Source of the DNA: an uncultured Acidobacteriota bacterium
GTDB lineage: Bacteria > Acidobacteriota > UBA6911
Length of the DNA stretch: 64,000 nucleotides
NCBI GenBank assembly: GCA_963809485.1
Contig: CAWEJX010000008.1
Location: forward strand, 1 to 64,000
Direction of reading: 5' to 3'
This document shows, piece after piece, positions 3,274-52,475 of this stretch. Made by a program: the position numbers and the translations under genes. The notes below the pieces were generated by a model that searched no databases, was not told where the DNA came from, and was given only the letters and a program-made list of their open reading frames with translations. Every line of letters begins with the position of its first letter. Position 1 is the first letter of the stretch.

Positions 3274-3460
3274 AGTCAGGCCTGAAAGATTGGAACCGCT
3301 CAAAGCGGTTGGAGGAGTTACGCTGGTCTTGCTCGCCGACCCTCGTCGAACAAATCGGCGTTTGTCAGCGCTTTTGTCAGCGTATCTCAGCGTTTCAAAA
3401 TAAGGAGCTGTCAAACTCTATAAGTCCCCCGGCAGAGCCGGGGATTTACCAATAGAATTA
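3274..3460 (-). mobile_element. family-A miniature IS200/IS605-like element, copy A1 (internal deletion, right hairpin lost)
   Basis: Homologous to 37080-37473; retains the CCCCGGCAGAGCCGGGG and AACCGCTCAAAGCGGTT hairpins. Confidence 0.8.
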
Positions 3461-3558
3461 ATCGCGCGTTCACGCCAATACCTCGAAGCTTCAAGTTTTC
3501 TTTGAGAAGCAGGGCCGTAGCTCTGATTTTTTCCCGTATAGAATGCCGCAATTGCCTG

Positions 3559-4929
3559 CTACAGGGGTTTGAACCGGCTCTTGGGAACTTTGCAGATCGG
3601 GCAAACCCAATTGTCGGGTATTTTGTCGAACGGCGTGCCGGGAGGAATTCCGCCGGCAGGATCGCCCTTCGCGGGATCATAGACATACCGGCAGACCGAA
3701 CAGATATATTTTTCCTGCACAGGTTCCTTTGCAGGCGCCTGTTGGGGCGTTTCAGCGGGCCGGCTGATGCGGTCTCGAACGGCATCGGCAAGAGCGTCCA
3801 GAGCGGCATATGTTTCCGCCCTGGGCAAGCCTTTTGCCAGGACCGGCGGAAGGAATTCAAGCTTCAGGCCCGAGAGCAACGACTGTAGTGTCTCAGTCAG
3901 CCTCCCTCCCCAGCCGAACGATCCGATCACCGAGGCAAATTTCGCCTTGGGATTCAGCGCGTTGGCCAGCAGTGCGGCGTAGGCGGCCTTGGGGTGCGGG
4001 CCGGCCAGGACCATCGGGGAGCCGATCACAATCCCTGCCGCATCCACAAGCATCATAGCCAGCTTTCCCGTGTCCGCCTCGGCCAGGTCGAGCTGCTCGG
4101 CCAAAACTCCGCGCTCGGCGCAGGCCTCGACAAAGTAGCGCACCATAAGGCGCGTGCTTTCATGCATGGAGACGTAGGGCACAACCACAGTCTTCTTCGC
4201 GGGACCGAAAATCCACTCCCGGTGGGCATCCACGATCAGCGCCGGGCGCTTGTGGATCGGGCCGTGGCTGGGCGCGATGGTCTGCGCACCAAGCTTTTCC
4301 GCTTTGCTGAAATTTTTCGCGATTACCTCCCGGAAGGGCATCATGATCTCGGCGTAATATCTCTTGGCGGACTGAAGGAGCGCCCCTTCGTCGGACACGT
4401 ACAGGTCGGCGCTCGCCAGGTGGGAACCGAACAGGTCGCAGGAAAACAGAATTTTCTGCTCGGGCAGCCATGTGAGGATGGTCTCGGGCCAGTGAACCCA
4501 TGGGAAACTGATGAACTGCAGCGTCTTGCCTCCGAGGTCGACGGTGTCCCCGTCTTTGACCGTAACGATGCGGTCCTCAGGCACGGCCAGCAAGTCCATC
4601 AGGAGCTGCTTGCCTCTATCGCTCGTCACCGCTTTGGCCATGGGATAGGCTGAAAGCACATCGGGAATGGCGCCGGAATGGTCCTGCTCGGCATGATTCG
4701 CGACCACATAGTCGATCGCCGAAACCTTCAGATCCTTCAAGCGCGCGAAAAGCACGTCTTTCATTGCCGGATCGACTGCGTCAATAAGCGCCGTTTTTTT
4801 CGTACCCTGGACAAAGTATGCGTTGTAGCTTGTCCCGTCGGGAAGCGGAATAAGGCTGTCAAAAAGCTTCCGATCCCAATCCACGGCTCCGACCCACCAG
4901 ATCCCTTCGCTTATTTTGCGTGCTTTCAT
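3559..4929 (-). CDS. flavodiiron protein (FprA family) with C-terminal rubredoxin domain
   Basis: [20 protein letters not shown], flavodoxin domain, C-terminal CSVC...WVCPIC. Confidence 0.92.
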
Positions 4930-5134
4930 CTTCAACCAATCCTTTCGAGTAGTGGAACTATACCAGGGATGATTTTAGACGAATCTGGGGAATAAACAAA
5001 ACAGAAGTAGTGGGCAGCAGGCAGCAGGAATCAAGAAGCCCGAATTTGGGATTTTTCTTTTGGGGAAAGAATACAGGAATTGGGTAGTTTGGGTCCGCGC
5101 TTTTCCGGCCTCCGGCTTCTTTCCTCGAGGTATT

Positions 5135-5332
5135 CTACTTGCCGATTTTTCCTATCAGGCGGGCCGGGAGCGTGATTATCGAGCGAATCAGCTCCAGCAC
5201 TCCTCCTACGGCTATGCCGAGAATTCGGAAAGGAAGCAGTATCAACCAAACCAGCGGATACAGGACCAGCGCGAGGAGCGCAAGCGGCCAGCACAGAATG
5301 AACAAAATGCACCAGAGCAGAAATTTCAGCAT
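5135..5332 (-). CDS. small hypothetical membrane protein
   Basis: 65 aa hydrophobic ORF MLKFLLWCILFILCWPLALLAL. Confidence 0.7.
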   Translation of the reverse strand: MLKFLLWCILFILCWPLALLALVLYPLVWLILLPFRILGIAVGGVLELIRSIITLPARLIGKIGK

Positions 5333-5393
5333 AGGTGGCCTCAAAAAGAGCAATCGTTGGTTTTTATTGAGGAAATGCCGTTCGAAATCTTCT

Positions 5394-9287: not shown

Positions 9288-9322
9288 CGGCTGCGTTTTG
9301 CTTTGGATTTTGGGCATAAATT

Positions 9323-9395
9323 TTAACGCTGACCTGCGCCGATAAACGCTGACGTACGCTGAAAAAATATAAAGAGTATTATTTTCCCAGCGTTT
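9323..9395. repeat. ACGCTGA-based short repeats related to the cargo of copy A4
   Basis: AAACGCTGACGTACGCTGA is also present at 26815-26833. Confidence 0.55.
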
Positions 9396-9467: not shown

Positions 9468-10316
9468 TTAAAACAGCTTGTTTGGGACCGGCTGCAATCC
9501 CAAAGCCTCGCGGACCGGGGCAAAGCTTTTCCTGTGAATAGGCACGGGTCCGAGTTTTTTCAGCGCGTGCAAATGCTCGAGGGTCGGATAGCCCTTGTGA
9601 GCAGCGAAGCCATAGCCGGGATATATGCGATCCTGCTCGATCATGTAGGTGTCCCGCGTCGTTTTGGCAATAAGGGAGGCGGCGGCAATGCTCGCAGATA
9701 GGGCGTCGCCATGAATGATGCCGTTTTGAGGACAGGGGCAGCCGGGTATTTTGCGTGCATCCACCAGCGCGAAATCGGGCTGCGGGTTGAGTCCGCATAC
9801 GGCACGGCGCATCGCCAGGAGGCCGGCGCGGTAGATGTTCAGCCGGTCGATCTCCCCGACTTCGGCACGGCCCGCGGACCAGCAGACTGCATTTTTTTTG
9901 ATCTCCGCAGCCAGCGCATCCCTTTTCCGTTCGTCCGTGATTTTTTTTGAATCGTCCAGACCGCGCAGGCGGTAATTGTCCGGAAGAATGGCGGCGCCGG
10001 CGATCACCGGTCCCGCCAGCGGCGCCATGCCGGCCTCGTCGACTCCCGCTATGAGTTTGTATCCCTGTACCGCCAGTGCATTCTCAAATCGGAAGAGCTC
10101 GTCGAGCCGCTGTTTTTCGCTCAAATCGATCTGACGGCGCTTGCGTATTTCCAATGCCAGCTTTCGGGCCCCGCTCCTGACATCCTTTTCAAGCGCTTCG
10201 AGAAGCTGGTCGGATATCGGCTGGTCCGCGGCCAGGATGAATTCTCTCAATCTCCCCAACGGTTGCGCGATGAATGAGTCGACGGAGGTGTCCGGGATTA
10301 GCTTCCTGACAGACAT
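9468..10316 (-). CDS. rnhB: ribonuclease HII with N-terminal extension
   Basis: AGVDEAG, DSKK, IAAAS..AK..RD, HKGY, HRKSF. Confidence 0.93.
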   Translation of the reverse strand: MSVRKLIPDTSVDSFIAQPLGRLREFILAADQPISDQLLEALEKDVRSGARKLALEIRKRRQIDLSEKQRLDELFRFENALAVQGYKLIAGVDEAGMAPLAGPVIAGAAILPDNYRLRGLDDSKKITDERKRDALAAEIKKNAVCWSAGRAEVGEIDRLNIYRAGLLAMRRAVCGLNPQPDFALVDARKIPGCPCPQNGIIHGDALSASIAAASLIAKTTRDTYMIEQDRIYPGYGFAAHKGYPTLEHLHALKKLGPVPIHRKSFAPVREALGLQPVPNKLF

Positions 10317-17221: not shown

Positions 17222-17241
17222 ACGCAAATTATCTCCGCCCC

Positions 17242-37473: not shown

Positions 37474-37642
37474 ACTGCTTTCGCGGGTTGCCGTATCTGC
37501 GATGAAATCCGGCGCCGCATTGCGCGGCGGCCGGGAGGTTCAATTTTCCGAGGAATTTCTTGAAAAACCGGGCACCGGCAGATATGGTAGCCGTCAAAAA
37601 GCAATCAACGGTTTGGCCGCTCCGCGGTTTCGGAGACGAACT

Positions 37643-38032: not shown

Positions 38033-38079
38033 GTTTTTGGAAATACGGCATTCGCGTTTGATGGGGAAGGGAAACCGGA

Positions 38080-39047: not shown

Positions 39048-39057
39048 GAGAGGATAG

Positions 39058-40179
39058 ATGGACGCATCATATAGCGGCGAGGTCATGACGCTGAACATGG
39101 GGCCGCAGCACCCTTCGACGCACGGAGTCCTGCGTCTCGAGCTGAAAACGGACGGCGAAATCGTCGCCGATGCCATTCCGCACATCGGGTATCTCCACCG
39201 TTGTTTTGAAAAACACGCGGAGAATATTGAATACCCCGGGATTATTCCCTTCACGGACAGGATGGACTACTGTGCGGCTATGAATATGGAGCTCGGGTAC
39301 GTCCTTGCGATCGAGAAGCTCATGGATATACGGATCAACAACCGGGTGCGTTGCCTGCGGATTATCATGGCCGAACTGGGGCGTATCGCCAGCCACCTGA
39401 TTGCGGCCGGCACTTACGGCAACGACATCGGATCTTTTACTCCATTCATGTGGTGCTTCCGGGACCGCGAAACGATTCTGGATCTGTTCGAGGAAACCTG
39501 TGGCGCGCGCCTGCTTTACAACTACAACTGGATTGGCGGCTTGATGTACGACGTCAATCCCGGATTCGAAAAAAAGGTGCTCGAGTTCCTGGATTATTTC
39601 GAGCCCCAGGTCGACAACCTCAACCGGTTGCTTTCCGATAACGTCATATTTATCCGCCGCACGGCGCACGTGGGTATTCTTCCTCCCGAGCTGGCCATCA
39701 GCTACGGAGTAACGGGACCCAACCTTCGCGGCAGCGGAGTCGCTTTCGACGTGCGCAGGGACGAGCCGTACCTCGGCTATGAAGATTTCGATTTCGATGT
39801 GGCTGTGGGCAAAGCGGATTACGGGCCGATGGGATCCTGTTGGGACCGCTACATGGTCCGCATCCGCGAGGTCAAGGAAAGCTGCAAGATAGTGCGCCAG
39901 GCTATCGCCAGGCTGACGCCCGGTGACGTCCACGAATCCGTGCCCAAGCGCGTGAAACCTCCCGCTGGAGAGATCTATATGCGCACGGAATGCCCCCGCG
40001 GGGAGCTGGGCTACTATATTGTCAGCGACGGCAGCACCAAACCCTACCGGGTCAAGGTGAAATCTCCTTGCTTCACGGTAATGAGCGCCTTCAGGGAAGT
40101 GAGCAGGGGAGCCATGATTGCCGACATCATCGCAATCCTCGGCAGTTTTGACATCGTGCTGGGTGAAATCGACCGCTAG
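39058..40179 (+). CDS. nuoD: NADH-quinone oxidoreductase subunit D (paralog 2)
   Basis: [20 protein letters not shown]. Confidence 0.95.
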
Positions 40180-40192
40180 CAGAGGAAGCCTG

Positions 40193-41242
40193 ATGGAATC
40201 TGTTGTCCGGATTTTGCAGTGGATACCGAAATACGATCATCTCCCGGAGCTTGCGCGCGTCGCGATTCCCCTCCTGATAAGCTGCCTGCTCGTGTTCGCG
40301 CTGCTGGCCCTGATGGTTCTTTTCCTGGTGTGGCTCGAGAGAAAGGTTTCGGCGCATGTACAGGACCGCCTGGGGCCGATGGTGGTGGGAGGATGGCATG
40401 GCTGGGCGCAAACGATTGCCGACGCGCTTAAGCTCCTGCTGAAGGAGGATATCGTCCCGGCGTCCACGGACAGGATGCTGTTCAAGACGGCGCCTTTCGT
40501 CGTGTTCCTCGGCGCCTTCACCGCCTATGTGGTCGTGCCGTTCGGCGCCTCGTCGTTTGTCACCGATTTGAACATCGGGATTCTCTATATCGTCGCGGCC
40601 TCCAGCCTTTCCGTCGTGGGCATCATCATGGCGGGGTGGGCATCCAACAACAAGTATTCGCTTTACGGAGGCATGCGCGCGGCGGCCCAGATCATCAGCT
40701 ATGAAATTCCTGCCGCCATGGCCATTATGACGGTGGTCATCTATGCGGGAAGCCTGTCGATGGTGGATATCGTGAACGCCCAGAAGGGCGGAATCCAGAA
40801 CTGGTTCATTTTCCGCAATCCCTTTGTCTTTCTGGGATTCATAATTTATTTCATCGCGTCTCTGGCCGAAGTCAACCGCACCCCTTTTGACATTCCCGAG
40901 GCCGAGTCGGAGCTTGTGGCCGGATTCCACACCGAATACTCCGGGATGCGTTTCGCGTTTTTCTTCCTGGCCGAATATGCCAATATGTATCTCGTTGCGG
41001 CCGTCGCCACCGCGCTTTTTCTGGGCGGGTGGACCCAGGTCCTGCCGGCGTCTGTGGCTCCGCAACTTCTGCCGGGACCGATTTTATTCCTGCTGAAATC
41101 GCTAGCGCTCATATTTCTTCAGATGTGGGTGCGCTGGTCGCTGCCGCGTCTGCGGGTCGACCAACTGATGTATCTGAGCTGGAAAATATTGTTGCCCATT
41201 TCGCTGGTGCTGATACTGGGCGTCGGATGGCTGGCCGTATAA
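40193..41242 (+). CDS. nuoH: NADH-quinone oxidoreductase subunit H
   Basis: ERK...[22 protein letters not shown]. Confidence 0.95.
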
Positions 41243-41266
41243 AGACTGGAGTCTCAGGGGACTTTT

Positions 41267-41755
41267 ATGTGGACGTACTTCAAGGATCTCGGTCTTGGCA
41301 TTATGACCGTCCTGAATTCTATGGCGGTTGCCTGCCGCCATTTTTTCACTCCAGCCGTCACCCTTCAGTACCCAGCGGTCAAATGGACGATGCCCGAGCG
41401 ATCCAGGGCGAGGCTTTTCAACAGGATCGAGGACTGCATCGGCTGCAGCCAATGCGCGCGGGTCTGTCCGACCAGCTGCATCACGATAAAAACTGAAAAG
41501 CGCGGCAGGGACGAACCCGAATTATTCGCGTCCAACGGAATGGCGATCAAGATGCGCACCTTTCTGTACGACATCGACACTTCGCTCTGCTGTTACTGCG
41601 GGCTGTGCACGTTCGCCTGCCCGACGCATTGCCTGGTTATGACGACCGATTATGAGAACTCCGTCTACGACAAGAACGAGCATATCTTCCACTTTGCCAA
41701 AGAAAAGCCGGCCGCCGGCGGCGCACTCAAAGATGCGCCTGCGGTTCAGGCCTGA
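41267..41755 (+). CDS. nuoI: NADH-quinone oxidoreductase subunit I (paralog 2)
   Basis: VTLQYP, two CxxCxxCxxxCP motifs. Confidence 0.9.
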   Translation: MWTYFKDLGLGIMTVLNSMAVACRHFFTPAVTLQYPAVKWTMPERSRARLFNRIEDCIGCSQCARVCPTSCITIKTEKRGRDEPELFASNGMAIKMRTFLYDIDTSLCCYCGLCTFACPTHCLVMTTDYENSVYDKNEHIFHFAKEKPAAGGALKDAPAVQA

Positions 41756-41763
41756 AACCGCCT

Positions 41764-42270
41764 ATGGAAAATAGTCTGATTGTCCCGATTGTTTTTTATT
41801 TTTTCGCCGCCATAACCATCGGCTCGGCCATGATTGTGGTTTTTGCGCGGAACCTCATACATTCCGCGTTCGCGCTGCTGTTTACGTTCGGCGGCGTCGC
41901 TGCGCTTTATGCTTTCATAGGCGCCGATTTTCTCGCAGCGACCCAGATGGTGATTTATGTCGGCGGGATTCTGGTGCTGTTGCTGTTCGGCGTCATGCTC
42001 ACCCATAAGCTGTACGACCTGAATCTTAAAGCGGAGACCTACCAGGTCTGGCCGGGCACCGCAGCCGTGCTGGTGGTGTTTGCTTTGCTGGTGACCTTCA
42101 TGCTGCGGACCCGCTGGTTCAGCGGCGGAAGGGGCGGGGATGATCCGACGACGGCCGCTATCGGAGAACTCTTCATGCAGGACTACATACTCCCATTCGA
42201 GGTTGCGTCGATTCTTCTGCTGATCGCTTTGATCGGCGCGGCCATGATTGTCAGGAGAAGACCCGAATGA
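41764..42270 (+). CDS. nuoJ: NADH-quinone oxidoreductase subunit J
   Basis: Q..IYVGGI.VL.LFGVML, PFE..S..LL.A. Confidence 0.93.
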   Translation: MENSLIVPIVFYFFAAITIGSAMIVVFARNLIHSAFALLFTFGGVAALYAFIGADFLAATQMVIYVGGILVLLLFGVMLTHKLYDLNLKAETYQVWPGTAAVLVVFALLVTFMLRTRWFSGGRGGDDPTTAAIGELFMQDYILPFEVASILLLIALIGAAMIVRRRPE

Positions 42271-42572
42271 TTGGACTCAGCCATTTCCTCATTGTCAGCG
42301 CAACGCTCTTCTGCCTGGGGCTTCTGGCGGTTTTTACGCGCAAAAATGCGGTGAACGTCCTTATGGGGGTCGAGCTGATTCTGAATTCCGCCAACCTCAA
42401 TCTGATCGCCTTTTCCAAATACTCCGCGGCAAAGATCGACGGCCAGGTTTTCGCCGCCTTCGTCATAGTGGTGGCCGCAGCCGAGGTGGCGGTCGCTTTG
42501 GCCATCGTGCTGACCATGTACCGGATTATCAAATCGGTCAATCTGGATCGGGCGGATACCTTGAAGGGGTAG
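42267..42572 (+). CDS. nuoK: NADH-quinone oxidoreductase subunit K
   Basis: ELILN, AAAEVAVALA. Confidence 0.93.
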   Translation: MIGLSHFLIVSATLFCLGLLAVFTRKNAVNVLMGVELILNSANLNLIAFSKYSAAKIDGQVFAAFVIVVAAAEVAVALAIVLTMYRIIKSVNLDRADTLKG

Positions 42573-42574
42573 TC

Positions 42575-44068
42575 ATGAATCCACAGATTCTCATGGATCT
42601 CAAAAAATTCTATCCCGAGCTGGCATTGAGCGTCGCGCTCCTTTGTGTCGTGATCGGCGATCTGGCCTTCCCGCGTTTTCATAAAAAAATCACATTCCTC
42701 ATCGCGGCGCTGGGCCTGGTGCTGGCTTTCCTCGCGAGCCTTCCGCTTTTCCAGGAACCTTCGGGCACCCTGTTTTTCGGCGTCCTGGCGCTGGACCCGG
42801 CGGCTGTTTTTTTCAAATGTTTCCTGATCCTCACTTCGTTCCTGATTCTCCTGGCGACTCCGGGATCCGTGGAACTCGGACAGAGGCGACTGGGCGAATT
42901 TTACTCCCTCCTGCTTGGAGTCACGCTCGGCCTTCTCCTGCTGGCCGCCAGCGAAGATATGCTGATGCTGTATCTGTCGCTGGAAATGGTTTCAATCGGA
43001 AGCTACATCATGGTCGGCTATCTGAAAAATGACCGGCAATCCAACGAAGCCGCGTTGAAGTACCTGCTGTTCGGCGCCGTATCTTCCGGCTGCATGCTTT
43101 ATGGATTCACGCTGTTCTACGGTCTGACAGGCACTACCAAGCTCATGGGCATGCGCGAGGTCCTGACCTCGGGCGGTGCGGCCGGGGACAACGCCGTGAT
43201 GCTCCTGATCGCCTCGACGGCAGTGCTCGCCGGATTCGGCTTTAAAACAGCGGCCGTGCCCTTTCATTTCTGGTGCCCGGATGTTTACACGGGCGCGCCG
43301 ACCCCGGTGACGGCGTTTTTAAGCGTCGCCCCCAAGGCGGCCGGATTCGCCATCCTGGTGAGATTTTTCTTCACCGGCCTGGCGCTCCCATCGGCCGATA
43401 CAGGCTCCTGGACCCCGCTGAGCTCCATCGACTGGCGGCTTCTCGTTCTGGTGTTGTCGATCCTGACAATGACGCTCGGCAACATTGCCGCACTGCGCCA
43501 GGAAAATATGAAACGCCTGCTGGCTTATTCATCCATTGCGCATGCCGGATATATCCTGATGGGAGTGGCGGTGCTGACCTCCCAGGGCATACAGTCGATC
43601 CTGATTTACCTGATCACCTACCTCTTCATGAATCTGGGGGCATTCCTGGTCGTCATCGAAATCTACAACCGAACCGGAAGCTTCGACCTCAAGGATTACC
43701 GGGGGCTTTACAGGCGCTCTCCGTTCCTGTCCATTGCCATGACAATTTTCATGCTTTCGCTGATGGGGATTCCGCCTCTGGCCGGGTTTTTCGGCAAATT
43801 ATACGTATTCGGCGCAGCCGTCAATGCGAACCTTGCGTGGTTCGCGGTTGTAGGGGCTTTAAACAGCGTTATTGCCGTCTATTATTACGCGCGGGTGATC
43901 AAAACCATGATCATCGAAGCCCAGGAAGACATGACCAGGATTGTCACACCCTGGACGGGTCTCGTCCTGGTCTGGTTCATGTTGCTCCCGACGGTAGGGC
44001 TCATGCTGTTCTGGAGTCAGATCCAGCAGCTGACCCTGACATCCATGAAGTTGTTCCTCGGGAATTGA
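42575..44068 (+). CDS. nuoN: NADH-quinone oxidoreductase subunit N
   Basis: EAALKY, FK..AVPFHFW.PDVY.GAP, KRLLAYSSIAH. Confidence 0.93.
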   Translation: MNPQILMDLKKFYPELALSVALLCVVIGDLAFPRFHKKITFLIAALGLVLAFLASLPLFQEPSGTLFFGVLALDPAAVFFKCFLILTSFLILLATPGSVELGQRRLGEFYSLLLGVTLGLLLLAASEDMLMLYLSLEMVSIGSYIMVGYLKNDRQSNEAALKYLLFGAVSSGCMLYGFTLFYGLTGTTKLMGMREVLTSGGAAGDNAVMLLIASTAVLAGFGFKTAAVPFHFWCPDVYTGAPTPVTAFLSVAPKAAGFAILVRFFFTGLALPSADTGSWTPLSSIDWRLLVLVLSILTMTLGNIAALRQENMKRLLAYSSIAHAGYILMGVAVLTSQGIQSILIYLITYLFMNLGAFLVVIEIYNRTGSFDLKDYRGLYRRSPFLSIAMTIFMLSLMGIPPLAGFFGKLYVFGAAVNANLAWFAVVGALNSVIAVYYYARVIKTMIIEAQEDMTRIVTPWTGLVLVWFMLLPTVGLMLFWSQIQQLTLTSMKLFLGN

Positions 44069-44354
44069 TTTTATGGGAGGTCCGCCGTCTCTGCCGGCGA
44101 GGCAATCTCGGTTTGACAAATGGCGGAGCATGCCTTTTCGCCGGCGTTCTGAATATCGAATTTCGAATGTCGAACCGCAGAAGCTATGGCAGGACCTCGA
44201 AATTCATTATTCTGCATTCGACATTCTGTGGTTCAAATAGCTTTCAGGACGGTTATTGCGGGTGAAACCGGCTTAATCCTTTATCGGTCGCGATCAGGCC
44301 CCTTTGAGGGGCCAGCAGCCGTTAAGCCCTGAGCTCTGCCGGAGGATACCTGGC
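44066..44354 (+). mobile_element. family-B miniature element, best-preserved copy
   Basis: Starts at the nuoN stop (TGA-T); left hairpin CCGCCGTCTCTGCCGGCG..GTTTGACA; TCGAAT palindrome; GGCCCCTTTGAGGGGCC; right end ..GCTCTGCCGGAGGATACCTGGC. Confidence 0.72.
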
Positions 44355-44366
44355 TTGAATCTCGAA

Positions 44367-45413
44367 TCAATCAGAGATATAGCGGCCTGTGTGCAGGTAA
44401 TTCATTACGACGGTAGTTCCCAGGGCTGCAAGGGATGCCAGACTGCAGCCTTCCGCCTCCGGAGCCAGGGATAGCCCCAATTCGCGGCTACGGAGGAAAA
44501 ATCGTCCAATCACAGGGGCAACAACTTTTTCGCGGGCGCCTGTCCAGCGGGAGATGGTCTCGACAAGAAAATGCCGGTTTTTCCTTATGAGGTCCTTGGC
44601 AAGAACGGTTCTCCTGTGGCCGTTGGATGCCGAAGAAAATATCCGGCTCAAATCGTCATCATAAAGCCCCAATGCTTTGTCCTTGAACTGATCCAGGGTT
44701 TCTCCGTAATACTCGATCAACGTATAGGTCTTCGAGTGGTAGGGGGAGTCTAGAGCTCCGGCGGTCACGCGAGGCCGCTTGTCTCTCAAACTGACCATGA
44801 GCCGGTCGACGTACTCCAGCTTTTTCAGCGACGGCCATTTTTTGTAAGTATTGCGCCAATTCGAACGCGGCGTCAGCCAGACGGCAAAAGTTTCCGCAAA
44901 ATCCTCATCCGGATGAGCCTGCGCATAATACTTCGGTTCTCCCTGGCTCTTTACGTAACTCCGGCTGAAGGGATTAAACTTAAACTTGAAGTTTGTCGGG
45001 TATGTAGCGTAAAAATCACCAAAATACTCGCGCCATTCAGGCTCATTATAAAGCATGTAGGCATAGTTTATGGCGTGGCCTGTTTCGTGGCGGAGCAGGA
45101 TCATGAGATCGCGCTTGTCGTAGGTTGCATATCCCATCTCCCGCTCTATCCTGATCAGTCTGTTATCAGCCAGGTGGAATGGAATGCCGATAATGGGAAC
45201 TCGGTCCGGACACCCCCATTCGTCGCCGGCACAGGCGAAATAATAAGCAGGCTTGAACGAGAGTTTCTTGGATTCAAGTTCCGAATAAAGCTTTTGGATA
45301 CAACGGAATAGCAGGGTCTGTTCGAATTCGAGAGGCAGGTCGCACACCCGCGTGTTCAGCAGTGTGTACCTTTCTGTCTCCCAGTTTAATTCAAGTTGAA
45401 GCTTCGTGGCCAT
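44367..45413 (-). CDS. putative zinc-binding metallopeptidase
   Basis: LRHETGHA (HExxH) and YAQAHPDEDFAETFAVWL. Confidence 0.82.
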   Translation of the reverse strand: MATKLQLELNWETERYTLLNTRVCDLPLEFEQTLLFRCIQKLYSELESKKLSFKPAYYFACAGDEWGCPDRVPIIGIPFHLADNRLIRIEREMGYATYDKRDLMILLRHETGHAINYAYMLYNEPEWREYFGDFYATYPTNFKFKFNPFSRSYVKSQGEPKYYAQAHPDEDFAETFAVWLTPRSNWRNTYKKWPSLKKLEYVDRLMVSLRDKRPRVTAGALDSPYHSKTYTLIEYYGETLDQFKDKALGLYDDDLSRIFSSASNGHRRTVLAKDLIRKNRHFLVETISRWTGAREKVVAPVIGRFFLRSRELGLSLAPEAEGCSLASLAALGTTVVMNYLHTGRYISD

Positions 45414-45619
45414 CGCAATGACTGCACTGAAAAGTCCTTTGATCCCGGTTAGGGAATCCTCGGCTGTCAAGCGGTGCCTGCATCATGCTGACCCCGCGCC
45501 GGACCGGCAAAAGGATTATATTCGATAGAATGGCCCTCGTGAAGAGGGTTTTATATAAATATATATTTGGCTATCCCATTGAAAACAAACGTGATAGATA
45601 TCAATGAAAACAGCCGAAG

Positions 45620-45976
45620 CTATTTGGGCTTGTCGGACGCAGAAATGCTGATTTCAGTTGCCGATCCGTCAATCGGAATGCCGTTGCGGCTTCCTTTGCC
45701 AAGCTCCAGCTTTACCTGGATAATGGAGAAGGCTTTAAGGTCCTTGAATTCCGCCGCTTTCCCATCGATCGTAATCTTGGCCGAGGAGGCATCCAGCAGA
45801 TATTTGGTTTTGCCCGGAATCTGGGAGACAAGTATCAGCTTCTCCGAAGCGGATATGGAGAGCAGCCGGTATGCGCCGGTTTCCACTGCCAGGCAAAGCG
45901 AAATCAAACCAAGCAGACACAAAGCCACGCCAATTTTTCGGGTTGTGAGAATCGCGACATCGGCCCTACCGAACAT
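45620..45976 (-). CDS. small exported hypothetical protein
   Basis: Hydrophobic N-terminus and beta-rich domain; start uncertain. Confidence 0.55.
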   Translation of the reverse strand: MFGRADVAILTTRKIGVALCLLGLISLCLAVETGAYRLLSISASEKLILVSQIPGKTKYLLDASSAKITIDGKAAEFKDLKAFSIIQVKLELGKGSRNGIPIDGSATEISISASDKPK

Positions 45977-46095
45977 CCTATGCCAGCTCCGCGAAAGTAA
46001 ATTACACTGATTGGAGTGTCATTCGCACTGTAAGGTTCAAAAATCCGGCGCACGTCCTCCGCTGGAACCTATTATAGCCATAATCCGTTTTTCTC

Positions 46096-46495
46096 ATAAT
46101 TCTATTGGTAAACCCATGGCTCTGCCGTGGGACTCATAGAGTTTGACAGCTGCGTATTTTGAAACGCTGAGATACGCTGACAAAAGCGCTGACAAACGAT
46201 TTGTTCGGCGAGGGTCGGCGAGCAAAAGCCGATGAGGCGCTTCCGATGGAGTTTTCTGCGGCGGCACTGTGGCAAGCGCCGTGCGGCAAGGAGATGGAGG
46301 GTATGTGAAAGCGGGCGTTTGCCACAGTGCCGCCGCAGAAAACTGTCCAGCGCGGAGCGCTGGCCCCTGCGGGGATCGGAAGCGCCTCATCGGCTTTTGC
46401 CCGCGTAAGTCAGCGTTCAAGACCAGCGTAACTCCTCCAACCGCTTTGAGCGGCTCCAATCTTTCAATCCTCGAGCTTTGCCGGAGGCACCTGAC
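46096..46495 (+). mobile_element. family-A miniature element, full-length copy A7
   Basis: TAAT-TCTATTGGTAAA left end through GCCGGAGGCACCTGAC right end; nested inverted repeats as in A6. Confidence 0.88.
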
Positions 46496-46681
46496 ATTCT
46501 TGCTGTTGTTCATTGAATCCTGCACTCCGTTTTTGTGTATGCCATCGTATGCTGCGGCATGCGCCCATCGATCTGCAACTCATACAGACGTTCCGGTTCA
46601 CCGCAACGGCAGGCGTATTTGCTTTACGGGTTGCGAGTTATGCGCCGGCGTGCTATCCATTGCAGAACGGGAGACGGCGAA

Positions 46682-47869
46682 GTGGGAAAAAGTGCAGCCC
46701 TAATGCTTTTATTGTTTTTATCCTGCGCCCCATCCGTCTTATCCCAGGACCTGAAGAAGTCAATAGTGTTTCCCCTCGAGATCCCATCTCAAGCGCAAAA
46801 GCTTGAGTGGCTGAGTGAAGGGATTGCCCTCTCTATTTCCGGGCAGCTTGAAGGCGGCGCCGTGAAGGCAGTGGACCGCAACGACAGGATTGAGGTGGTT
46901 GAAAAAATGGATCTGCCTCCGGGCGCGCAGCTCAGCCGGGCGAGCATGATCCGGGCAGCGCAACAGTCTGGCGTCGATCTTCTGATAATGGGCGTGATTG
47001 CGGGTACGGAATCCAGTCTTAAAATCCTTGTCCGGGCGCTCGATATCCAGTCCATGAAACTCAGCGGCGACATGGTGGCCAACGGCCCCCTGTCGGCGCT
47101 CCAGCAAATGGAAAACGAGCTAGCCTGGATGATCCTGAACAACACGGGTCTGAAAAGCGATGTTTCGAGAGAAGCCTTCGCATCGAGGACACGCAAGGAG
47201 CCCAACTCCGCATATTCTCTATTTATTCAGAGCCTCAGCACCGCCAGCGAAAAAGAGCAGCTTCGGCTGCTGTCCAAGGCAGTCGCCGAATACCGGGATT
47301 TCCCTCAGGCCCAGTTCCTGATCGGCCGCCTCTATTATCGCCGGGGCGAATGCGACAAAGCGTTGCCGCACCTCATGCTGGGCCGCGGGGAAGGCTGGCA
47401 GACGGAGGAAAACGAATTCATGTGCGGAACCTGCTATCTGCAGCAGAGTCTGCCCGACCTGGCGATTCAGACGCTCTCGAGCTTACCGTCCGCCTCCAGC
47501 TCCCATGAAGTGCTGAACAACCTTGGGGCGGCTTATCTGCTCAAAGGGGATGATGAGGGAGCTCGTCGCTGCCTCGAGGAAGCCCTGAAAATCGCCCATG
47601 CAGATTCGACAGCTTCCCTGAATTATGCAATCGTCCGGCATCTGCAGGGAAATGACGCGGAGGCCCGCAGGGTGCTGGAGGAAGCTTCAAAGGCGCACCC
47701 GAAGAGCGGAATGATTCATTTTCTCCTGAGCATTTTGCTCAAAGATGCGGGAGAGGTTGAAAGTGCCGCCCCCGCCGCAGAGAGGGCCAGGAACCTCGGC
47801 ATTAACGTGGAAAAGCTTCAGTCGGAAAATCCCCGGTCATGGTCCCGCGTCATCACCTCCTGGGAATAG
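46682..47869 (+). CDS. exported TPR-repeat protein
   Basis: Signal-like N-terminus, WLSEGIA domain, TPR helices (NNLGAAY); GTG start inferred. Confidence 0.75.
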   Translation: MGKSAALMLLLFLSCAPSVLSQDLKKSIVFPLEIPSQAQKLEWLSEGIALSISGQLEGGAVKAVDRNDRIEVVEKMDLPPGAQLSRASMIRAAQQSGVDLLIMGVIAGTESSLKILVRALDIQSMKLSGDMVANGPLSALQQMENELAWMILNNTGLKSDVSREAFASRTRKEPNSAYSLFIQSLSTASEKEQLRLLSKAVAEYRDFPQAQFLIGRLYYRRGECDKALPHLMLGRGEGWQTEENEFMCGTCYLQQSLPDLAIQTLSSLPSASSSHEVLNNLGAAYLLKGDDEGARRCLEEALKIAHADSTASLNYAIVRHLQGNDAEARRVLEEASKAHPKSGMIHFLLSILLKDAGEVESAAPAAERARNLGINVEKLQSENPRSWSRVITSWE

Positions 47870-47880
47870 ATGTGCAGCCC

Positions 47881-47920
47881 TAATCCAATGAAAGATCCAC
47901 CGGCTCTGCCGGAGGATAAT
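47881..47920 (+). repeat. isolated family-B left-end hairpin
   Basis: TAATCCAATGAAAGATCCACCGGCTCTGCCGGAGGA resembles 24812-24845. Confidence 0.55.
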
Positions 47921-48059
47921 ACTTCGCGCTGGAATCCATGGATCGGCAATCCTCCTTCTTCAGCCGATGTTGCCGGTTTTTCCTGCCTGTGTTCACCAAT
48001 TGCCGACGATTTGGGAACGACCTGGCAAAAACCGGGAGAGCAAACATATTCCGGCAAAC

Positions 48060-48088
48060 TTGACAAGGTTTCTCGTCCCACATAAGAT
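48060..48088 (+). promoter_or_regulatory. sigma70 promoter of tRNA-Leu
   Basis: TTGACA-17 bp-TAAGAT. Confidence 0.75.
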
Positions 48089-48103
48089 AGCCTAAATGGT
48101 TGC

Positions 48104-48190
48104 GCCGAAGTGGCGGAATTGGCAGACGCGCTAGGTTCAGGGTCTAGTGGGCTTAAGCTCGTGGGGGTTCGAGTCCCCCCTTCGGCACCA
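48104..48190 (+). tRNA. tRNA-Leu(CAG)
   Basis: GCCGAAG/CTTCGGC acceptor stem, CTAGG-TTCAGGG-TCTAG anticodon arm, long variable arm, GTTCGAG, ACCA. Confidence 0.95.
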
Positions 48191-48318
48191 TACCTTCCAT
48201 CCCGGATAGCTCAAAGCGCTGAAAGATTCAATCATCCGTTGGCAGAGTCTGCAGGAAGGCACCGTCTCGAGCACCGGACTCGTGAGGATATCCCTCGGCC
48301 TTGGTCGGCGTGGATTTT

Positions 48319-49296
48319 CTATCCCAGTGAGATAGGGACCGGAATGAACGAGAGGATCAAAATAGCCGCAGCGAGCAGACCCAGGAATATTCTTCCGGGT
48401 CCCAGTTCCTCCTCATCGCGCAGAGTTGAGGGATGGTAGAAGCGAACGCGCAATCCTATAACCAGAAGAAGCAGCGCAAAAAGCAGATACGATGGCGTCG
48501 GCCATCCCAGGAAGCTCAGAAGCACCAGGGCGATGCCAGCGCCAATCGAGATTCTTCTCTGCGCCGAACGTCCGAAAACCGCATAGGCTATATGGCCGCC
48601 GTCCAGTTGCCATATGGGCAACAGGTTCAGGCTGGTGGCCAGAAGGCCGAACCATGCAGCCATCGCGATGGGATGCACAAGCAGATCCTGGCTGGCCGGG
48701 GCATATCCCAGTATAAGGCGCGCAGACAACCGGAGGATCAGCGGCTCTCCAAAACTCAACCCTCCGGAGATGCTGCCCTTAGGAACAATCCGGGACAGGG
48801 CGAGCCCAATCCAGAGGGCTGGAAGCACAAAGGCGAATCCTGCCAATGGCCCTGCAATCCCTATATCGAATAGTGCGCGCTTGTGCCGGAACGGGGATTT
48901 GATCTTGATGAACGCGCCCAGGGTCCCGGCAATGGAGATGGGCGCCGGCACAAAATAGGGCGGAGTGCAATGGACACCGTAGTAACGGCAGGCCATAAAA
49001 TGCCCCATCTCATGAGCCAGCAGGATTACGATCAATGGGACGGAAAACGCCAGTCCCTGCAAAATCAGGCCAGGCCTCGACAATGTCAGCCGGGTGGCCG
49101 AAAAAAAACCGATATCTCCAAAGAAATAAAACAATCCCGCAAAGGAGGTGCTTAGAAGTGTTACACCGAAGAGTACCGCCGCAAGGATCCACTCGCGCCG
49201 GGCCGGGCTGGGTGCCTTGAATCGCGTTTCCACGCCGGGCGGACTCGTGCTCCACGGCGAAGTCACGGGCGGAAATTCCGGAAGATTACTGCTCAC
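48319..49296 (-). CDS. site-2 protease (M50) family protein
   Basis: AHEMGH, AGP, NLLPIWQLDGGH. Confidence 0.9.
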   Translation of the reverse strand: MSSNLPEFPPVTSPWSTSPPGVETRFKAPSPARREWILAAVLFGVTLLSTSFAGLFYFFGDIGFFSATRLTLSRPGLILQGLAFSVPLIVILLAHEMGHFMACRYYGVHCTPPYFVPAPISIAGTLGAFIKIKSPFRHKRALFDIGIAGPLAGFAFVLPALWIGLALSRIVPKGSISGGLSFGEPLILRLSARLILGYAPASQDLLVHPIAMAAWFGLLATSLNLLPIWQLDGGHIAYAVFGRSAQRRISIGAGIALVLLSFLGWPTPSYLLFALLLLVIGLRVRFYHPSTLRDEEELGPGRIFLGLLAAAILILSFIPVPISLG

Positions 49297-49335
49297 AACA
49301 ATATGGAGCCTTATGCTGACGTGATGGACAAGGTA

Positions 49336-49626
49336 TCACTCGGAAACACCGCTCGCTATCTTGTCGGCGCGTATTTCTTTACCAGGCTTAAAACGAATGG
49401 TCTTGCCCGGAGGAATGGCAACCTCTTCTCCTGTGCGAGGATTGCGTCCAACACCGCTTTTTCTGGGCTTGACGATGAATACCCCAAATCCCCGCAGCTC
49501 AATTCTTTCACCACGCTTCAGCGCATTCTTGAGCGAATTGAAGACAGATTCCACCGCAATTTCCGCTTTCACTTTGGTGATGTTCAACTGCTCAGCAACA
49601 CGGTTTACGATGTCCTGCTTTATCAC
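49336..49626 (-). CDS. HU/IHF-family DNA-binding protein
   Basis: IELRGFG, GRNPRTGE, FKPGK. Confidence 0.92.
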   Translation of the reverse strand: MIKQDIVNRVAEQLNITKVKAEIAVESVFNSLKNALKRGERIELRGFGVFIVKPRKSGVGRNPRTGEEVAIPPGKTIRFKPGKEIRADKIASGVSE

Positions 49627-49654
49627 GCTGAACCTCCCTTAAGTTAGTGAGGGC

Positions 49655-49683
49655 ATTTTACTTGTGGCAAAATTTGCTGTCAA
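49655..49683 (-). promoter_or_regulatory. sigma70 promoter of the HU/IHF gene
   Basis: TTGACA-17 bp-TAAAAT on the minus strand. Confidence 0.7.
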
Positions 49684-49804
49684 GCCATTTCTATTTACAG
49701 AAATTCCAGTCAATGATACAGTGGCGCGCCGCCGCCCCGATCGCCGGGAAAATATATCTGCAGTGGACCGGAAGCGTACACTGCAAATTTTGAGGAGACC
49801 GCCC

Positions 49805-50359
49805 ATGCCTGTACTGCCTGATCAATGGATCCGCGATATGGCTAGAAAGTCCCACATGATTGAGCCTTACGCTGATTTGCGCAAACGCAGCCGAAAGATA
49901 TCCTACGGAGCCTCTTCCTACGGCTACGACTACCGTCTCTCCGATGAATACAAAATTCCGGATTTCGGAGATGAAGATAGACTGGACCCGAAAAAGATGG
50001 ATAAGGCGCGATTTAAGGACTACAAGGGGCGATATTGCTGGATCCCCCCGAATTCCTACATCCTGGCCCGATCGCTGGAGTACTTTCGCATTCCCCGGGA
50101 TGTCCTCGCAATCTGTCAGGGCAAATCCACTTACGCGCGCAGCGGCGTGATTGTGAACGTGACGCCTCTCGAACCTGAATGGGAAGGCTACATCACCATG
50201 GCGCTGGTCAATGCAGCACCGGTCCCCGCTAAAGTCTACTCGAGAGAGGGTATTGGTCAGATTGTGTTCCTTCGTGCGGAAGATCAGTGCAAAGTTTCAT
50301 ATGCGGACCGAAAAGGCAAATACCAGGCGCAACAAAGGATCCGCCTGTCCCGCGTCTGA
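49805..50359 (+). CDS. dcd: dCTP deaminase
   Basis: SYGASSYGYD, GKSTYAR, TPLEPEWEG, GKYQ. Confidence 0.93.
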   Translation: MPVLPDQWIRDMARKSHMIEPYADLRKRSRKISYGASSYGYDYRLSDEYKIPDFGDEDRLDPKKMDKARFKDYKGRYCWIPPNSYILARSLEYFRIPRDVLAICQGKSTYARSGVIVNVTPLEPEWEGYITMALVNAAPVPAKVYSREGIGQIVFLRAEDQCKVSYADRKGKYQAQQRIRLSRV

Positions 50360-50476
50360 TTCCGGGATCGGGCCTGAATGGCAATACCCAATGCCCTGAG
50401 TCATGAAGGTTGACAGGCATCGTTTTGGATGTATTTATTAAAGCAGGCACATCTTCAAGGCATGGGAAAGGAACTG

Positions 50477-51043
50477 ATGACCGGAAAAAACCGCAGGGTA
50501 TTTCATCCTTGCCGCTTCGCGACAATAGCGCTGATCGGCATGCTTCTTTGCGGAGGATGCGGCTATCGGGTGCGCAGCTCGGCCGGCACACTCCCATCCG
50601 GCATGCAATCTCTCGGCATACCGACATTTATCAATCGCACGGGCCAGTATAAAATCGAACAAATAATATCCGCCGCAGTATTGAAAGAGTTTTCGCTCCG
50701 CACGAAAGCGAAAATCAACTCAAGCGGCTCCGGTGTGGATTCCGTGCTTCTGGGCGAAATCCGCGGTTTGAGCGCCGTGCCGGTGACATTTGGCAACCAG
50801 ACCTCCGGGTCGCAGACCTTTGGATCCGCTTTTCTGGTTACCGTCCAGATAAGCGCAAAATTGAAGCGGCTGCAGGATTCCGCCGTGCTCTGGCAAAACG
50901 ACAATTTTTTGTTCCGCGAAAGATATACGATGAACAGCAGCGTGCGGGATTTCTTTTCGGAAGAAAACCCGGCGCTGGAAAGGCTTTCCCGAAATTTTGC
51001 CGAAAGCCTCGCCGGCGCCATACTGGATCGGTCCAAACCTTGA
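50477..51043 (+). CDS. lptE: LptE-family lipoprotein
   Basis: GCGY lipobox-like motif, F.NRT; lies upstream of holA. Confidence 0.75.
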   Translation: MTGKNRRVFHPCRFATIALIGMLLCGGCGYRVRSSAGTLPSGMQSLGIPTFINRTGQYKIEQIISAAVLKEFSLRTKAKINSSGSGVDSVLLGEIRGLSAVPVTFGNQTSGSQTFGSAFLVTVQISAKLKRLQDSAVLWQNDNFLFRERYTMNSSVRDFFSEENPALERLSRNFAESLAGAILDRSKP

Positions 51044-52035
51044 TCATTTACAGCCTGGAAGAACTGGAAAACGATCTTCGTAGCCATGGTTTTCGGCCGC
51101 TTTACATGGTATTGGGCCCGGAGCAGTATCAGTGCCGGCTTGCCATAAGGCTGCTGAAAGAACAGGTCCTGACTCCCGATTCCGTTGCCTTCGATTACGC
51201 CGAATTTGCCGGGGCTGAAGCGGCCGCCTCGGAGATTATCGAAGCGGCCGGCACGTTCCCGATGCTCTCCAAGCGCCGACTGGTGCTTGTCAGGGACGCC
51301 GACAAACTGCGGGAATCCGAACAGGAAATTCTCATGAATTCCCTCGGCAGGCTTTCGCCGCGCAGTATGCTGATCCTTTCTGCCGAAGACCTGGACCGGC
51401 GGAAGAGGTTTTACAAAACGCTGCTGGACAAAAGCTGCGTTGCGGAGTTTCAAAAGCTGAAAGATGCCGCCCTTGAGCGTTGGGCCGCTTCATTCGTGGC
51501 ACGGGAAGGGTATCGCATCGGAACCGCATCGCTCAAAAAAGTGATCGATCTGGTCGGATCCGATCTGCAGGCGCTGGCTACGGAATTTGAGAAGCTTTTC
51601 TTATACGCGGGAGAACAAACAAACATTTCCGATTCCGCAATCGACGATTTGGTCCGCAGCAGCCGGCAGCATGGAATCTTCGAGCTCATTAATTCTATCG
51701 CTACCCACGATCGCGCCGGCTCTCTCAGGAAGCTTGCGGCATTGCTTGAAGCAGGAGAGCAGGCAATCGGCGTCGCGGCCATGATGGCCCGGCACTGCAG
51801 GCAGGTGCTCATTGCCAAGGAATGCCTTCTGAACCGAAGCAGCACAAGGGAGATAGGGAGCTTGCTGCAGATCAAGCCCTATTTTTTGGATCAGTTCCTG
51901 CGCCAGGCTCGTGTCGCGGATGTCGTCGTCGTCCGGCAGATGCTCATCAGTCTGGCCGAAATTGATCGGAAACTCAAATCGTCATCCGGCCAGGAACGCG
52001 CTCTCCTGGAAAAGCTCATCTGTGCGCTCGTGTAA
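51040..52035 (+). CDS. holA: DNA polymerase III delta subunit
   Basis: PLY...G.E.Y, FPM..RRLVLV, E.EKL..Y, D..LKS. Confidence 0.88.
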   Translation: MIIYSLEELENDLRSHGFRPLYMVLGPEQYQCRLAIRLLKEQVLTPDSVAFDYAEFAGAEAAASEIIEAAGTFPMLSKRRLVLVRDADKLRESEQEILMNSLGRLSPRSMLILSAEDLDRRKRFYKTLLDKSCVAEFQKLKDAALERWAASFVAREGYRIGTASLKKVIDLVGSDLQALATEFEKLFLYAGEQTNISDSAIDDLVRSSRQHGIFELINSIATHDRAGSLRKLAALLEAGEQAIGVAAMMARHCRQVLIAKECLLNRSSTREIGSLLQIKPYFLDQFLRQARVADVVVVRQMLISLAEIDRKLKSSSGQERALLEKLICALV

Positions 52036-52244
52036 GCGCTCCGGGATGGCGGATCTCCTGTGCCGGCCGTGGCTCGATTTACCAGTGGAACTGCGGGGCA
52101 CAGATCGCAAGGTCAAAGTCGCAGGTCCCTGATCCGGCAGCCGAAATCCGCAATATATAGGCGGATCCCATCAAGAGGCCGAATCGATAATCCGCATGCA
52201 TCAGCGCTTTTTTCAGCCTCTGCCAGCGTCTGCAGGGCATGGCT

Positions 52245-52475
52245 GATTACATTGGTAAATCCCCGGCTCTGCCGGGGAACTCAAAGAGTTTGACAGCTCC
52301 GGATTTTGAAACGCTGATAAAAGCGCTGACAAACGCCGATTTGTTCGGCGGGGATCGGAAGCGCCTCATCGGCTTTTGCCCGCGTAGGTCAGCGTTCAAG
52401 ACCGGCGTAACTCATCCAACCGCTTTGAGCGGTTCAAATCTTTCAAGCCTCCGGCTTTGCCGGAGGCACCTGACT
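52245..52475 (+). mobile_element. family-A miniature element, copy A8 (internal deletion)
   Basis: GATTACATTGGTAAATCCCCGGCTCTGCCGGGG ... CAAGCCTCCGGCTTTGCCGGAGGCACCTGAC. Confidence 0.86.

Follow-up and report, generated by a model that had tools for sequence, protein, structure and literature searches.

Two described systems frame the repeat analyzed here, a family of short intergenic hairpin elements (family A) in a 64,000-nucleotide stretch of DNA from an uncultured Acidobacteriota bacterium (contig CAWEJX010000008.1, positions 1 to 64,000; hereafter, the window). The palindrome-associated transposable elements (PATEs) of Haloquadratum walsbyi derive from IS605-type transposons, as stated in the available passages of PMC3119063. 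Class 3 TnpAY1 genes occur in Acidobacteria and Planctomycetes, with about 600 hairpin copies in Solibacter usitatus Ellin6076; the available passages of PMC6006769 describe this system as an intermediate between an insertion sequence (IS) and a REPtron. Family A, together with a second set of repeats (family B), is very probably a non-autonomous, transposase-less derivative of the IS200 group (IS200/IS605 family, ISMex34-like), in other words a bacterial PATE. A first, sequence-only reading of the window had proposed a non-autonomous element of the IS200/IS605 (HUH/Y1) type, and this is now borne out by the homology of the ends to IS200-group elements that encode a Y1_Tnp protein.

Homology to tnpA-Bearing IS200-Group Elements

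In a blastn search of one copy against PLSDB, the end modules were matched separately in four records, on plasmids of Desulfolutivibrio, Pseudodesulfovibrio, Solidesulfovibrio and Rhodanobacter. Two of these matches are complete transposase-less elements of ~170 and 277 bp. The DDE transposase beside the Desulfolutivibrio match was discarded as unrelated to the module, since it has its own inverted repeats. With the Pseudodesulfovibrio element as a query, 14 PLSDB records were obtained, including plasmids of Achromobacter, Acidovorax, Rhizobium, Azotobacter and Leptolyngbya. A 143-aa gene annotated as an IS200/IS605 transposase sits beside the module on Achromobacter pDCA-1 and Acidovorax p3-T1, and the TnpA protein belongs to the Pfam family Y1_Tnp (E = 4e-39 for pDCA-1 and 4e-38 for p3-T1). 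The limits of this IS are fixed, because pDCA-1 holds two identical copies of 670 bp.

The left end of the pDCA-1 IS is composed of a 21-nt leader, the hairpin CCCCGGC-TCT-GCCGGGG and, further on, AGTAGAAGTTTGAC (GTTTGAC), after which tnpA follows. At the right end, GCCGC-TTTGA-GCGGC is separated by ~14 nt from the hairpin CCCCCGGC-TTT-GCCGGGGG, and a 9-nt tail, ATGGTTACT, closes the element. An IS with 74% identity on p2META1 of Methylorubrum extorquens AM1, annotated as ISMex34, has the same ends. About 55-60 nt per end can be aligned between family A, family B, the plasmid mini-elements and the IS elements, with order and spacing kept. Moreover, profiles made from nothing but window copies pick up the ends of these IS, the right one with E = 1.4e-6 in pDCA-1 and the left one with E = 8e-8 in p3-T1. 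The kinship of family A with the ends of an IS200-group element is therefore one of descent and goes beyond a resemblance in shape. By the same homology, the end with the TCT-loop hairpin and the 16-nt leader is the left end in IS terms, which corrects the sequence-only reading.

Distant blastn gave no match in the phage collection. The E. coli genomes searched with the 670-bp IS gave none either; hence, no link to an E. coli IS200 is drawn. The transposase-less relatives on Desulfovibrionaceae and Rhodanobacter plasmids (loci L019, 4001-4090; L020, ~3893-4065; L022, 2999-3275) adjoin partition or maintenance genes, namely parA and two kfrA-like genes.

Copies and Anatomy of the Elements in the Window

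Family A was delimited by repeat finding, blastn of three copies against the window, MAFFT alignment and nhmmer with two end profiles. All four methods agree on eight copies of 128-399 bp (Table 1); these are the copies listed in the sequence-only reading, whose coordinates were base-accurate at most ends. A remnant that it placed at 30493 is real but weak. The IS-left end profile matches all eight copies (E = 1e-34 to 2e-44), and the IS-right end profile six of them (E = 1e-17 to 5e-29). The description of the copies as intergenic and present in both orientations holds as well: each one is flanked by Pfam-supported housekeeping genes, and four copies lie on each strand. Likewise, no credible open reading frame (ORF), terminal inverted repeat or target duplication was found: of the seven mechanical ORFs overlapping copies, none matches a Pfam family at E <= 0.01, and no repeat or duplication of this kind is present at the 16 right ends and 29 left ends examined. 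With six family-B copies added to the eight of family A, there is one copy per 4.6 kb, within the range of one per 4-5 kb estimated from the letters; together, they occupy ~3.4 kb, or ~5% of the window.

In the IS orientation, an element starts with T(A/G)ATT and 11 nt (CTATTGGTAAA or ACATTGGTAAA), followed by the hairpin CCCCGGC-TCT-GCCGGGG, by GACTCAnAGAGTTTGACAGCTCCG and the sequence next to it, and by the core. After the core come the hairpin AACCGC-TTTGA-GCGGTT, ~12 nt, the hairpin CCTCCGGC-TTT-GCCGGAGG and the tail TACCTGACT, which reads (T/C)ACCTGAC, then mostly T (12 of 16). All three hairpins had been named in the sequence-only reading. The two ends are asymmetric, in keeping with the IS200/IS605 family: the left hairpin lies 16 nt from the start of the element and the right one 8-9 nt from its end. 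In six of the eight copies, the terminal hairpins are alike and in direct orientation; the other two (23350 and 26752) have one end only.

The hairpins are far more frequent than chance would allow. The motif CCGGC-NNN-GCCGG, searched on both strands with at most one mismatch, occurs 37 times versus 4.2 expected, a number reached in none of 100 shuffles, and every exact match lies inside a family-A or family-B copy. Furthermore, the pairing itself is conserved. Among 11-12 homologues, 92-95% of the cells of the hairpin columns are paired, compared with 31-62% when the partner is shifted by 1-3 columns. A GC/CG swap is seen in the inner hairpin (six versus four sequences) and a CG/UA swap in the terminal one.

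The two halves of the family-A core pair to form a long irregular stem. Folded as single-stranded DNA (ssDNA), the 232-nt copy reaches -58.3 kcal/mol (z = -6.5) and the 395-nt copy 37080 reaches -138.4 kcal/mol (z = -13.3). Such very stable folds are what would be expected of a structured non-coding RNA or regulatory DNA family under host selection (3'-end mRNA stabilizers, terminators or protein-binding sites), spread by duplication or recombination and not by transposition. Several copies directly 3' of stop codons fit this explanation too, and a weak promoter-like TTGTCA-16-CAAAAT was noticed in three copies in a promoter scan of 35000-53000, which is not used as evidence. No T run follows either hairpin, however, and the terminator scan of 35000-53000 made its calls inside the long palindrome and none at the end hairpins. 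The Rfam search, named as a check in the sequence-only reading, matched no known RNA family: none of the copies has a match at the gathering score, which in the window is reached by the tRNA only, and at E <= 1 the sole further match is a spurious one of the microRNA family MIR820 on the long palindrome (37227-37331). Moreover, the copies decay through pair-breaking mutations, deletions and truncations, and elsewhere these ends enclose a transposase gene. Host-selected RNA or regulatory DNA is therefore very unlikely.

The size classes are set by the core. The base form measures 229-232 bp, and internal deletions produce forms of ~190-217 bp. In the ~395-bp forms, a palindromic insert is present, part of which is an inverted duplication of the neighboring core sequence. 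The 26-nt arms of this insert are the same in copies 46097 and 37080 and in the copy of locus L014, from a related genome (see below). Its loop of ~42 nt (insert at 37232-37330, 46250-46345 and L014 ~10100-10180) is flipped in 46097, but not in 37080 or L014; this flip is an inversion between the palindrome arms. A further core variant is built of ACGCTGAC units (26800-26911 and 9321-9367 in the window; L008, L010, L004 and L017 in relatives). The units lie ~10-11 nt apart on both hairpin arms and enclose an A/T-rich loop; in copy 26752, repeats of ~10 nt flank this loop. Their helical periodicity might reflect a protein-binding array, or mere slippage.

Families A and B had been treated as separate. 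Their left and right ends are the same and the core alone differs; they are two core variants of one superfamily. At the site orthologous to the pure family-B copy 24808-25045, a related metagenome-assembled genome (MAG) holds an A/B chimera (L010, 7780-7975), with the switch at the shared GCGGTTCAA. Cores have therefore been exchanged between the families.

With respect to the neighboring genes, copy 17241 starts 20 nt past the stop of an altronate/galactarate-dehydratase-like gene (16055-17221), copy 37080 lies between the E2 acyltransferase gene (35583-36989) and nuoA (37502-38032), and copy 3274 adjoins the family-B fragment 3183-3260. A tRNA-Leu gene (CAG, 48104-48190), the only RNA gene of the window by Rfam and ARAGORN, is located ~180 bp downstream of the family-B left-end fragment 47877.

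Table 1. Family-A and family-B copies of the window, with the parts of the reference copy.
Feature	Position	Strand	Description
Family-A copy, reference	52244-52475	+	Complete, 232 bp; strand is the IS top strand (tnpA-like orientation)
Copy 52244, start	52244-52248	+	TGATT
Copy 52244, left-end hairpin	52261-52277	+	CCCCGGC-TCT-GCCGGGG
Copy 52244, inner hairpin	52418-52434	+	AACCGC-TTTGA-GCGGTT
Copy 52244, right-end hairpin	52448-52466	+	CCTCCGGC-TTT-GCCGGAGG
Copy 52244, tail	52467-52475	+	CACCTGACT
Family-A copy	17241-17471	+	Complete, 231 bp; 93% identity to 52244-52475
Family-A copy, long	46097-46495	+	399 bp; palindromic insert in core, arms AGTTTTCTGCGGCGGCACTGTGGCAA and complement
Family-A copy, long	37080-37474	-	395 bp; palindromic insert as in copy 46097
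Family-A copy	35287-35503	-	217 bp; between lipB (34420-35172) and E2
Family-A copy	3274-3460	-	187 bp; internal deletions, right-end hairpin lost
Family-A copy	23350-23479	-	~128 bp; IS left end only
Family-A copy	26752-~26913	+	~160 bp; left end and variant core, without right end
Left-end-module remnant	30499-30577	+	Decayed; nhmmer E = 1.3e-6; directly 3' of methyltransferase gene (29692-30492)
Fragment of ACGCTGAC-repeat core module	9321-9367	.	E = 3e-4; absent from the list of the sequence-only reading
Family-B copy, best preserved	44066-44352	+	Both ends as family A, different core
Other family-B copies	3183-3260, 24808-25045, 32565-32759, 47877-~47925, 55533-55822	+	Bounds approximate

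Presence and Absence in Acidobacteriota Relatives

Genome contigs were scanned with a 28-nt degenerate pattern taken from the conserved left-end region. At least 18 loci were found; among those listed, 17 come from the Acidobacteriota MAG CAYYTC01 and one from JAFNAG01. Contig CAYYTC010000004.1 of the former is syntenic with positions 17754-37046 of the window, with an identity of 85-88%. Filled and empty junctions were compared by separate alignments of the flanks. This contig lacks copies 23350 and 35287 at the orthologous sites, and copy 26752 is common to both genomes, as is the remnant 30499-30577. The polymorphism that the sequence-only reading suggested looking for in empty and filled sites is thus present. 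The empty site of 35287 was located at ~18235-18248 of L010, and no duplicated host bases were seen in either of the two filled/empty comparisons. These differences in the copy set between close relatives imply insertion or precise loss.

The same comparison bears on host selection. Since the relative does without copy 35287, this copy between lipB and the E2 gene, one of those between co-oriented genes that the sequence-only reading had put forward as possible RNA structures, is dispensable. In the window, the left-end hairpin is on the strand of the upstream gene in six of the eight copies, as might be expected of an RNA or regulatory element; the MAG loci show no orientation bias (9 of 22 co-oriented), but this count is rough and nothing is concluded from it, the longest-ORF calls mis-assigning known genes such as folB.

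The constancy of the left end raises another explanation, a one-ended mobile element, either of the rolling-circle kind (IS91/Helitron-like) or a retroelement, in which one end would be constant and the other variably truncated. The IS-left end is present in 8/8 window copies and the other end in 6/8. In the MAG loci, the non-seed copies (L007 19598, L017 7894 and L018 970) are cut at different internal points with the same end kept, and no copy with the IS-right end alone was found there or in the window. The MAG sample is, however, biased to the IS-left end, because the loci were seeded with it. Moreover, the constant end is the left end of IS200 by homology, no conserved GTTC/CTTG-type flank is present, and no reverse transcriptase, Rep or IS91 gene exists among the 316 ORFs scanned; the truncations are explained by deletions in hairpin-rich DNA. 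A one-ended element is therefore scarcely credible. Readings as IS91/Helitron-like elements, IS110, a group II intron, an integron attC or an oriT were rejected, given the absence of conserved flanks, matching genes or Rfam hits and the direct homology of the ends to the IS200 group.

Two loci of the relatives contain unusual forms. At L015 11718-11762, the right-end tail sequence, one hairpin and the leader of the left end make up a terminal-only unit of 45 nt. No smaller family member was seen, and the unit arose by deletion between the two like hairpins, of the repeat-mediated kind known from PATEs (PMC3119063). At L014 9959-10608, a family-A copy of the MAG holds a nested insert resembling a classical MITE (a miniature transposable element bounded by inverted repeats), with terminal inverted repeats GTTTCTGTCGCGAAA and a TAGTTA duplication; these genomes therefore host a second active small element, of the DDE type.

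In the syntenic part, two window genes are divided: a glycosyltransferase gene (18600-19717) into two overlapping ORFs, and a 2-oxoacid dehydrogenase E1/E2-like gene (19767-23278) into four. Their counterparts in the MAG are single ORFs of 388 aa (L010:1689-2852) and 1153 aa (L010:2856-6314), respectively. The split genes are either pseudogenes or the result of assembly indel errors in the window.

Target Site and Proposed Transposition

Among 29 copies read in the IS orientation, 21 start with T[AG]ATT (14 TAATT and 7 TGATT). The choice of A or G is independent of the subfamily-specific bases downstream, as expected for a target derived from the host. In the MAG, the empty site of copy 23350 has TATTT at the exact position, and the next three bases, CAG, are identical. 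The leading T(A/G)ATT is thus probably the host target, even if it cannot be separated for certain from sequence carried by the element. For comparison, the target of IS608 is TTAC.

In six of the 29 copies, the TAA or TGA of this pentamer terminates an open frame that lies upstream and counts 141 codons or more. The frame upstream of the L007 copy is not a gene: it is spurious, a Pfam-supported aldolase gene being located on the opposite strand. With this one left out and the two orthologous folB frames counted once, four independent cases remain in family A: folB, ORF 23477-24259, TrkH in L018 and an 862-aa ORF in L015. The first TAA of copy 26752 (26752-26754) is the stop codon of folB, and the TAA of copy 23350 (23477-23479, minus strand) is that of ORF 23477-24259. 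Family B supplies a fifth case, as the TGATT of copy 44066 starts with the stop of a nuoL-like gene (42248-44068). Among the 58 listed genes of the window, eight have a stop codon within a T[AG]ATT pentamer, and three of these eight sites are occupied.

The scheme with the best support for such elements is peel-and-paste single-strand transposition by a TnpA supplied in trans, followed by decay; which enzyme acts, where it cuts, what it targets and whether it is active today are our inference. The two subterminal hairpin ends of the IS have been kept, and tnpA has given way to an unrelated, strongly self-pairing sequence. A TnpA of the Y1 HUH type, encoded elsewhere in the genome, would bind the near-identical top-strand hairpins on ssDNA, like the enzymes of IS608 and ISDra2, and would cut on the outer side of each, ~16 nt upstream at the left hairpin and 8-9 nt downstream at the right one. 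The single-strand circle released in this way would be pasted 3' of a short target without duplication. If the target is T(A/G)ATT, stop codons would be frequent and harmless landing sites, because it contains TAA or TGA. Later decay would give the size classes, through deletion between hairpins or core repeats, growth of the palindrome, flipping of its loop and loss of the right end.

Search for the Acting Transposase

The search for a transposase covered ~370 kb: the 64-kb window and ~300 kb from two related MAGs, at loci picked because they hold copies. From 281 selected ORFs of the relatives, 253 (128 + 125) were scanned, the 28 left out being L002 duplicates or orthologues of window genes. 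The only transposase of the window belongs to the IS4 family (Nterm_IS4 and DDE_Tnp_1 domains). Its gene, at 1732-2970, lies ~300 bp from the A/B cluster 3183-3460 and is unrelated to the hairpin elements.

Several observations weigh against an IS200-group derivative mobilized by a TnpA in the same genome. None of the 63 window ORFs is a tnpA, the IS4 DDE protein being the sole transposase. No transposase family was detected among the 253 ORFs from the 17 related loci, at Pfam thresholds of E <= 1e-12 or 1e-10, and tblastn with two TnpA proteins gave a best E of 0.077 and nothing in the copies. The tnpA-bearing IS with homologous ends belong to Proteobacteria, a lineage other than that of the window. 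Copies 23350 and 26752, like several MAG copies, lack the right end and would be immobile, as they stand, by the proposed mechanism; even so, the left-end-only copy 23350 is missing from the relative. The empty site of 35287 has no T[AG]ATT-like pentamer (CCAGC in the MAG versus CAAAT in the window). In the acidobacterial copies, most hairpin mutations are pair-breaking, which suggests that many of these copies are dead.

The strand of insertion is uninformative. In IS608 and ISDra2, the top strand is found preferentially on the lagging-strand template. The GC skew of the window is positive throughout, and the top strand is on the G-rich plus strand in four of eight family-A and six of six family-B copies. 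The combined figure (10/14) is not significant, and family A shows no clear bias with respect to the replication strand.

As the ~370 kb were chosen around non-autonomous copies, a tnpA elsewhere in the genome remains compatible with these results. The sequence-only reading anticipated a tnpA gene flanked by the same hairpins: such genes, with homologous ends, are present on proteobacterial plasmids, but not in the window or in the ~300 kb of acidobacterial relatives. For this reason, mobilization in trans is something we infer rather than observe. TnpA proteins of the pDCA-1 type are very common and highly conserved, with at least 8000 protein clusters at E <= 1e-20 and identities of 87-98% for the best 120. 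One of them, 89% identical to the pDCA-1 protein, is named from a MAG of Thermoanaerobaculia (Acidobacteriota; P0094).

A high density of hairpins with no transposase nearby is also the pattern of systems based on repetitive extragenic palindromes (REPs), and this is the main rival explanation. In a REP/REPIN-like system, the hairpins would be kept and multiplied by a domesticated single-copy RAYT (TnpA-REP) or class 3 TnpAY1, as long-term residents with host functions. One A or B copy per 4.6 kb and no transposase in ~370 kb agree with it, as does the existence of the single-hairpin 45-nt unit of L015. On the other hand, the ends have homologues in class-1 IS200-group elements that still have their tnpA, with two identical copies on one plasmid, and close relatives differ in the presence of two copies of the window. 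Class 3 TnpAY1 genes with atypical flanking hairpins, in ~600 copies in Solibacter usitatus, do place such a system in Acidobacteria (available passages of PMC6006769). However, none of the GTAG, CGTC or CnGA foot motifs given in the available passages of PMC3733652 and PMC6006769 stands beside the family-A hairpins, and the two ends differ from inverted REP dimers in being asymmetric and directly oriented. We therefore regard a REP/REPIN-like system as improbable and retain a transposase-less derivative of an ISMex34-like IS.

Implications

The mechanism class, the PATE-type derivative and the usual decay products are already described; what is new is their extension to another phylum. In the literature on acidobacterial REP/RAYT systems and on MITE, IS605 and PATE elements, no description of the present repeat was found. 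The density, the conservation of the ends across phyla and the probable T(A/G)ATT/stop-codon target are points of some interest. A dense acidobacterial repeat is tied in this way to a widespread lineage of ISMex34-like IS with a highly conserved TnpA, and T(A/G)ATT, often part of a stop codon, is a concrete and testable target rule.

For annotation, recognition of these repeats as IS200-type PATEs averts false gene calls (spurious ORFs of 108-178 aa) and explains contig ends. The repeats provide or border stop codons, and short-read assemblies will probably break at them.

It is conceivable, if doubtful, that the dense IS200-derived copies have become REP-like residents, which would be kept by a rare or single-copy Y1 enzyme, or by one arriving on plasmids in view of the widespread TnpA clusters of 87-98% identity, and steered by T(A/G)ATT onto stop codons. 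They would thus accumulate without harm directly 3' of genes, their end hairpins and rod-like core possibly shaping the 3' ends of mRNAs. If true, a class-1 IS200 would have given rise, by a second and independent route, to a genome-wide repeat of the REP type with a stop-codon landing rule.

Comparison with Known Systems

Family A is closest to the ISMex34-like IS of pDCA-1, p3-T1 and p2META1. The left ends align over the leader, the TCT- or TTT-loop hairpin and the stretch up to GTTTGAC, and the right ends over GCCGC-TTTGA-GCGGC, ~12 nt, the TTT-loop hairpin and a tail of 8-9 nt ending in (T/G)ACT. The order, the asymmetric spacing and the absence of terminal inverted repeats are also common to both. 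In family A, on the contrary, 60-330 bp of unrelated self-pairing sequence stand in place of the 430-bp tnpA and its leader. The host belongs to a different phylum, and the number of copies per kb is far above that of one or two IS per plasmid.

With REP/REPIN-RAYT systems, family A shares short GC-rich extragenic hairpins at high density and a presumed enzyme, a Y1 HUH protein acting on single-stranded hairpins (PMC3116915, PMC3733652 and PMC2817692). REPs have a GTAG/CGTC tag beside a palindrome of 20-40 bp and typically form inverted dimers, according to the available passages of PMC3733652. Family A has no such tag, and its two different ends enclose, in direct orientation, a core of 100-350 bp. 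The class 3 TnpAY1 hairpins come from the same phylum and are likewise high-copy hairpins tied to a Y1 enzyme, which for family A is presumed. They possess a 5' CnGA foot that family A lacks; this separation is based on the description in the available passages of PMC6006769 and not on the hairpin sequences.

The closest parallel in organization is found in the PATEs of Haloquadratum, as described in the available passages of PMC3119063. Both are too short for a transposase and have neither terminal inverted repeats nor a target duplication. In both, near-terminal palindromes are similar at the two ends, and the distance from the 5' end to the palindrome exceeds that from the 3' palindrome to the end. 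PATEs have a target of 4-5 nt on the 5' side, for which the probable T(A/G)ATT is the counterpart in family A. Terminal-only versions formed by deletion between the two palindromes, and other small elements inserted within, are known from PATEs and from the present repeats alike. The family-A ends share no sequence with the Haloquadratum PATE families, as far as those passages allow the comparison. Furthermore, the haloarchaeal PATEs are, according to the same source, mostly related to IS1341/tnpB-type elements, whereas family A is bacterial, carried by Acidobacteriota, and derived from the tnpA-only IS200 group.

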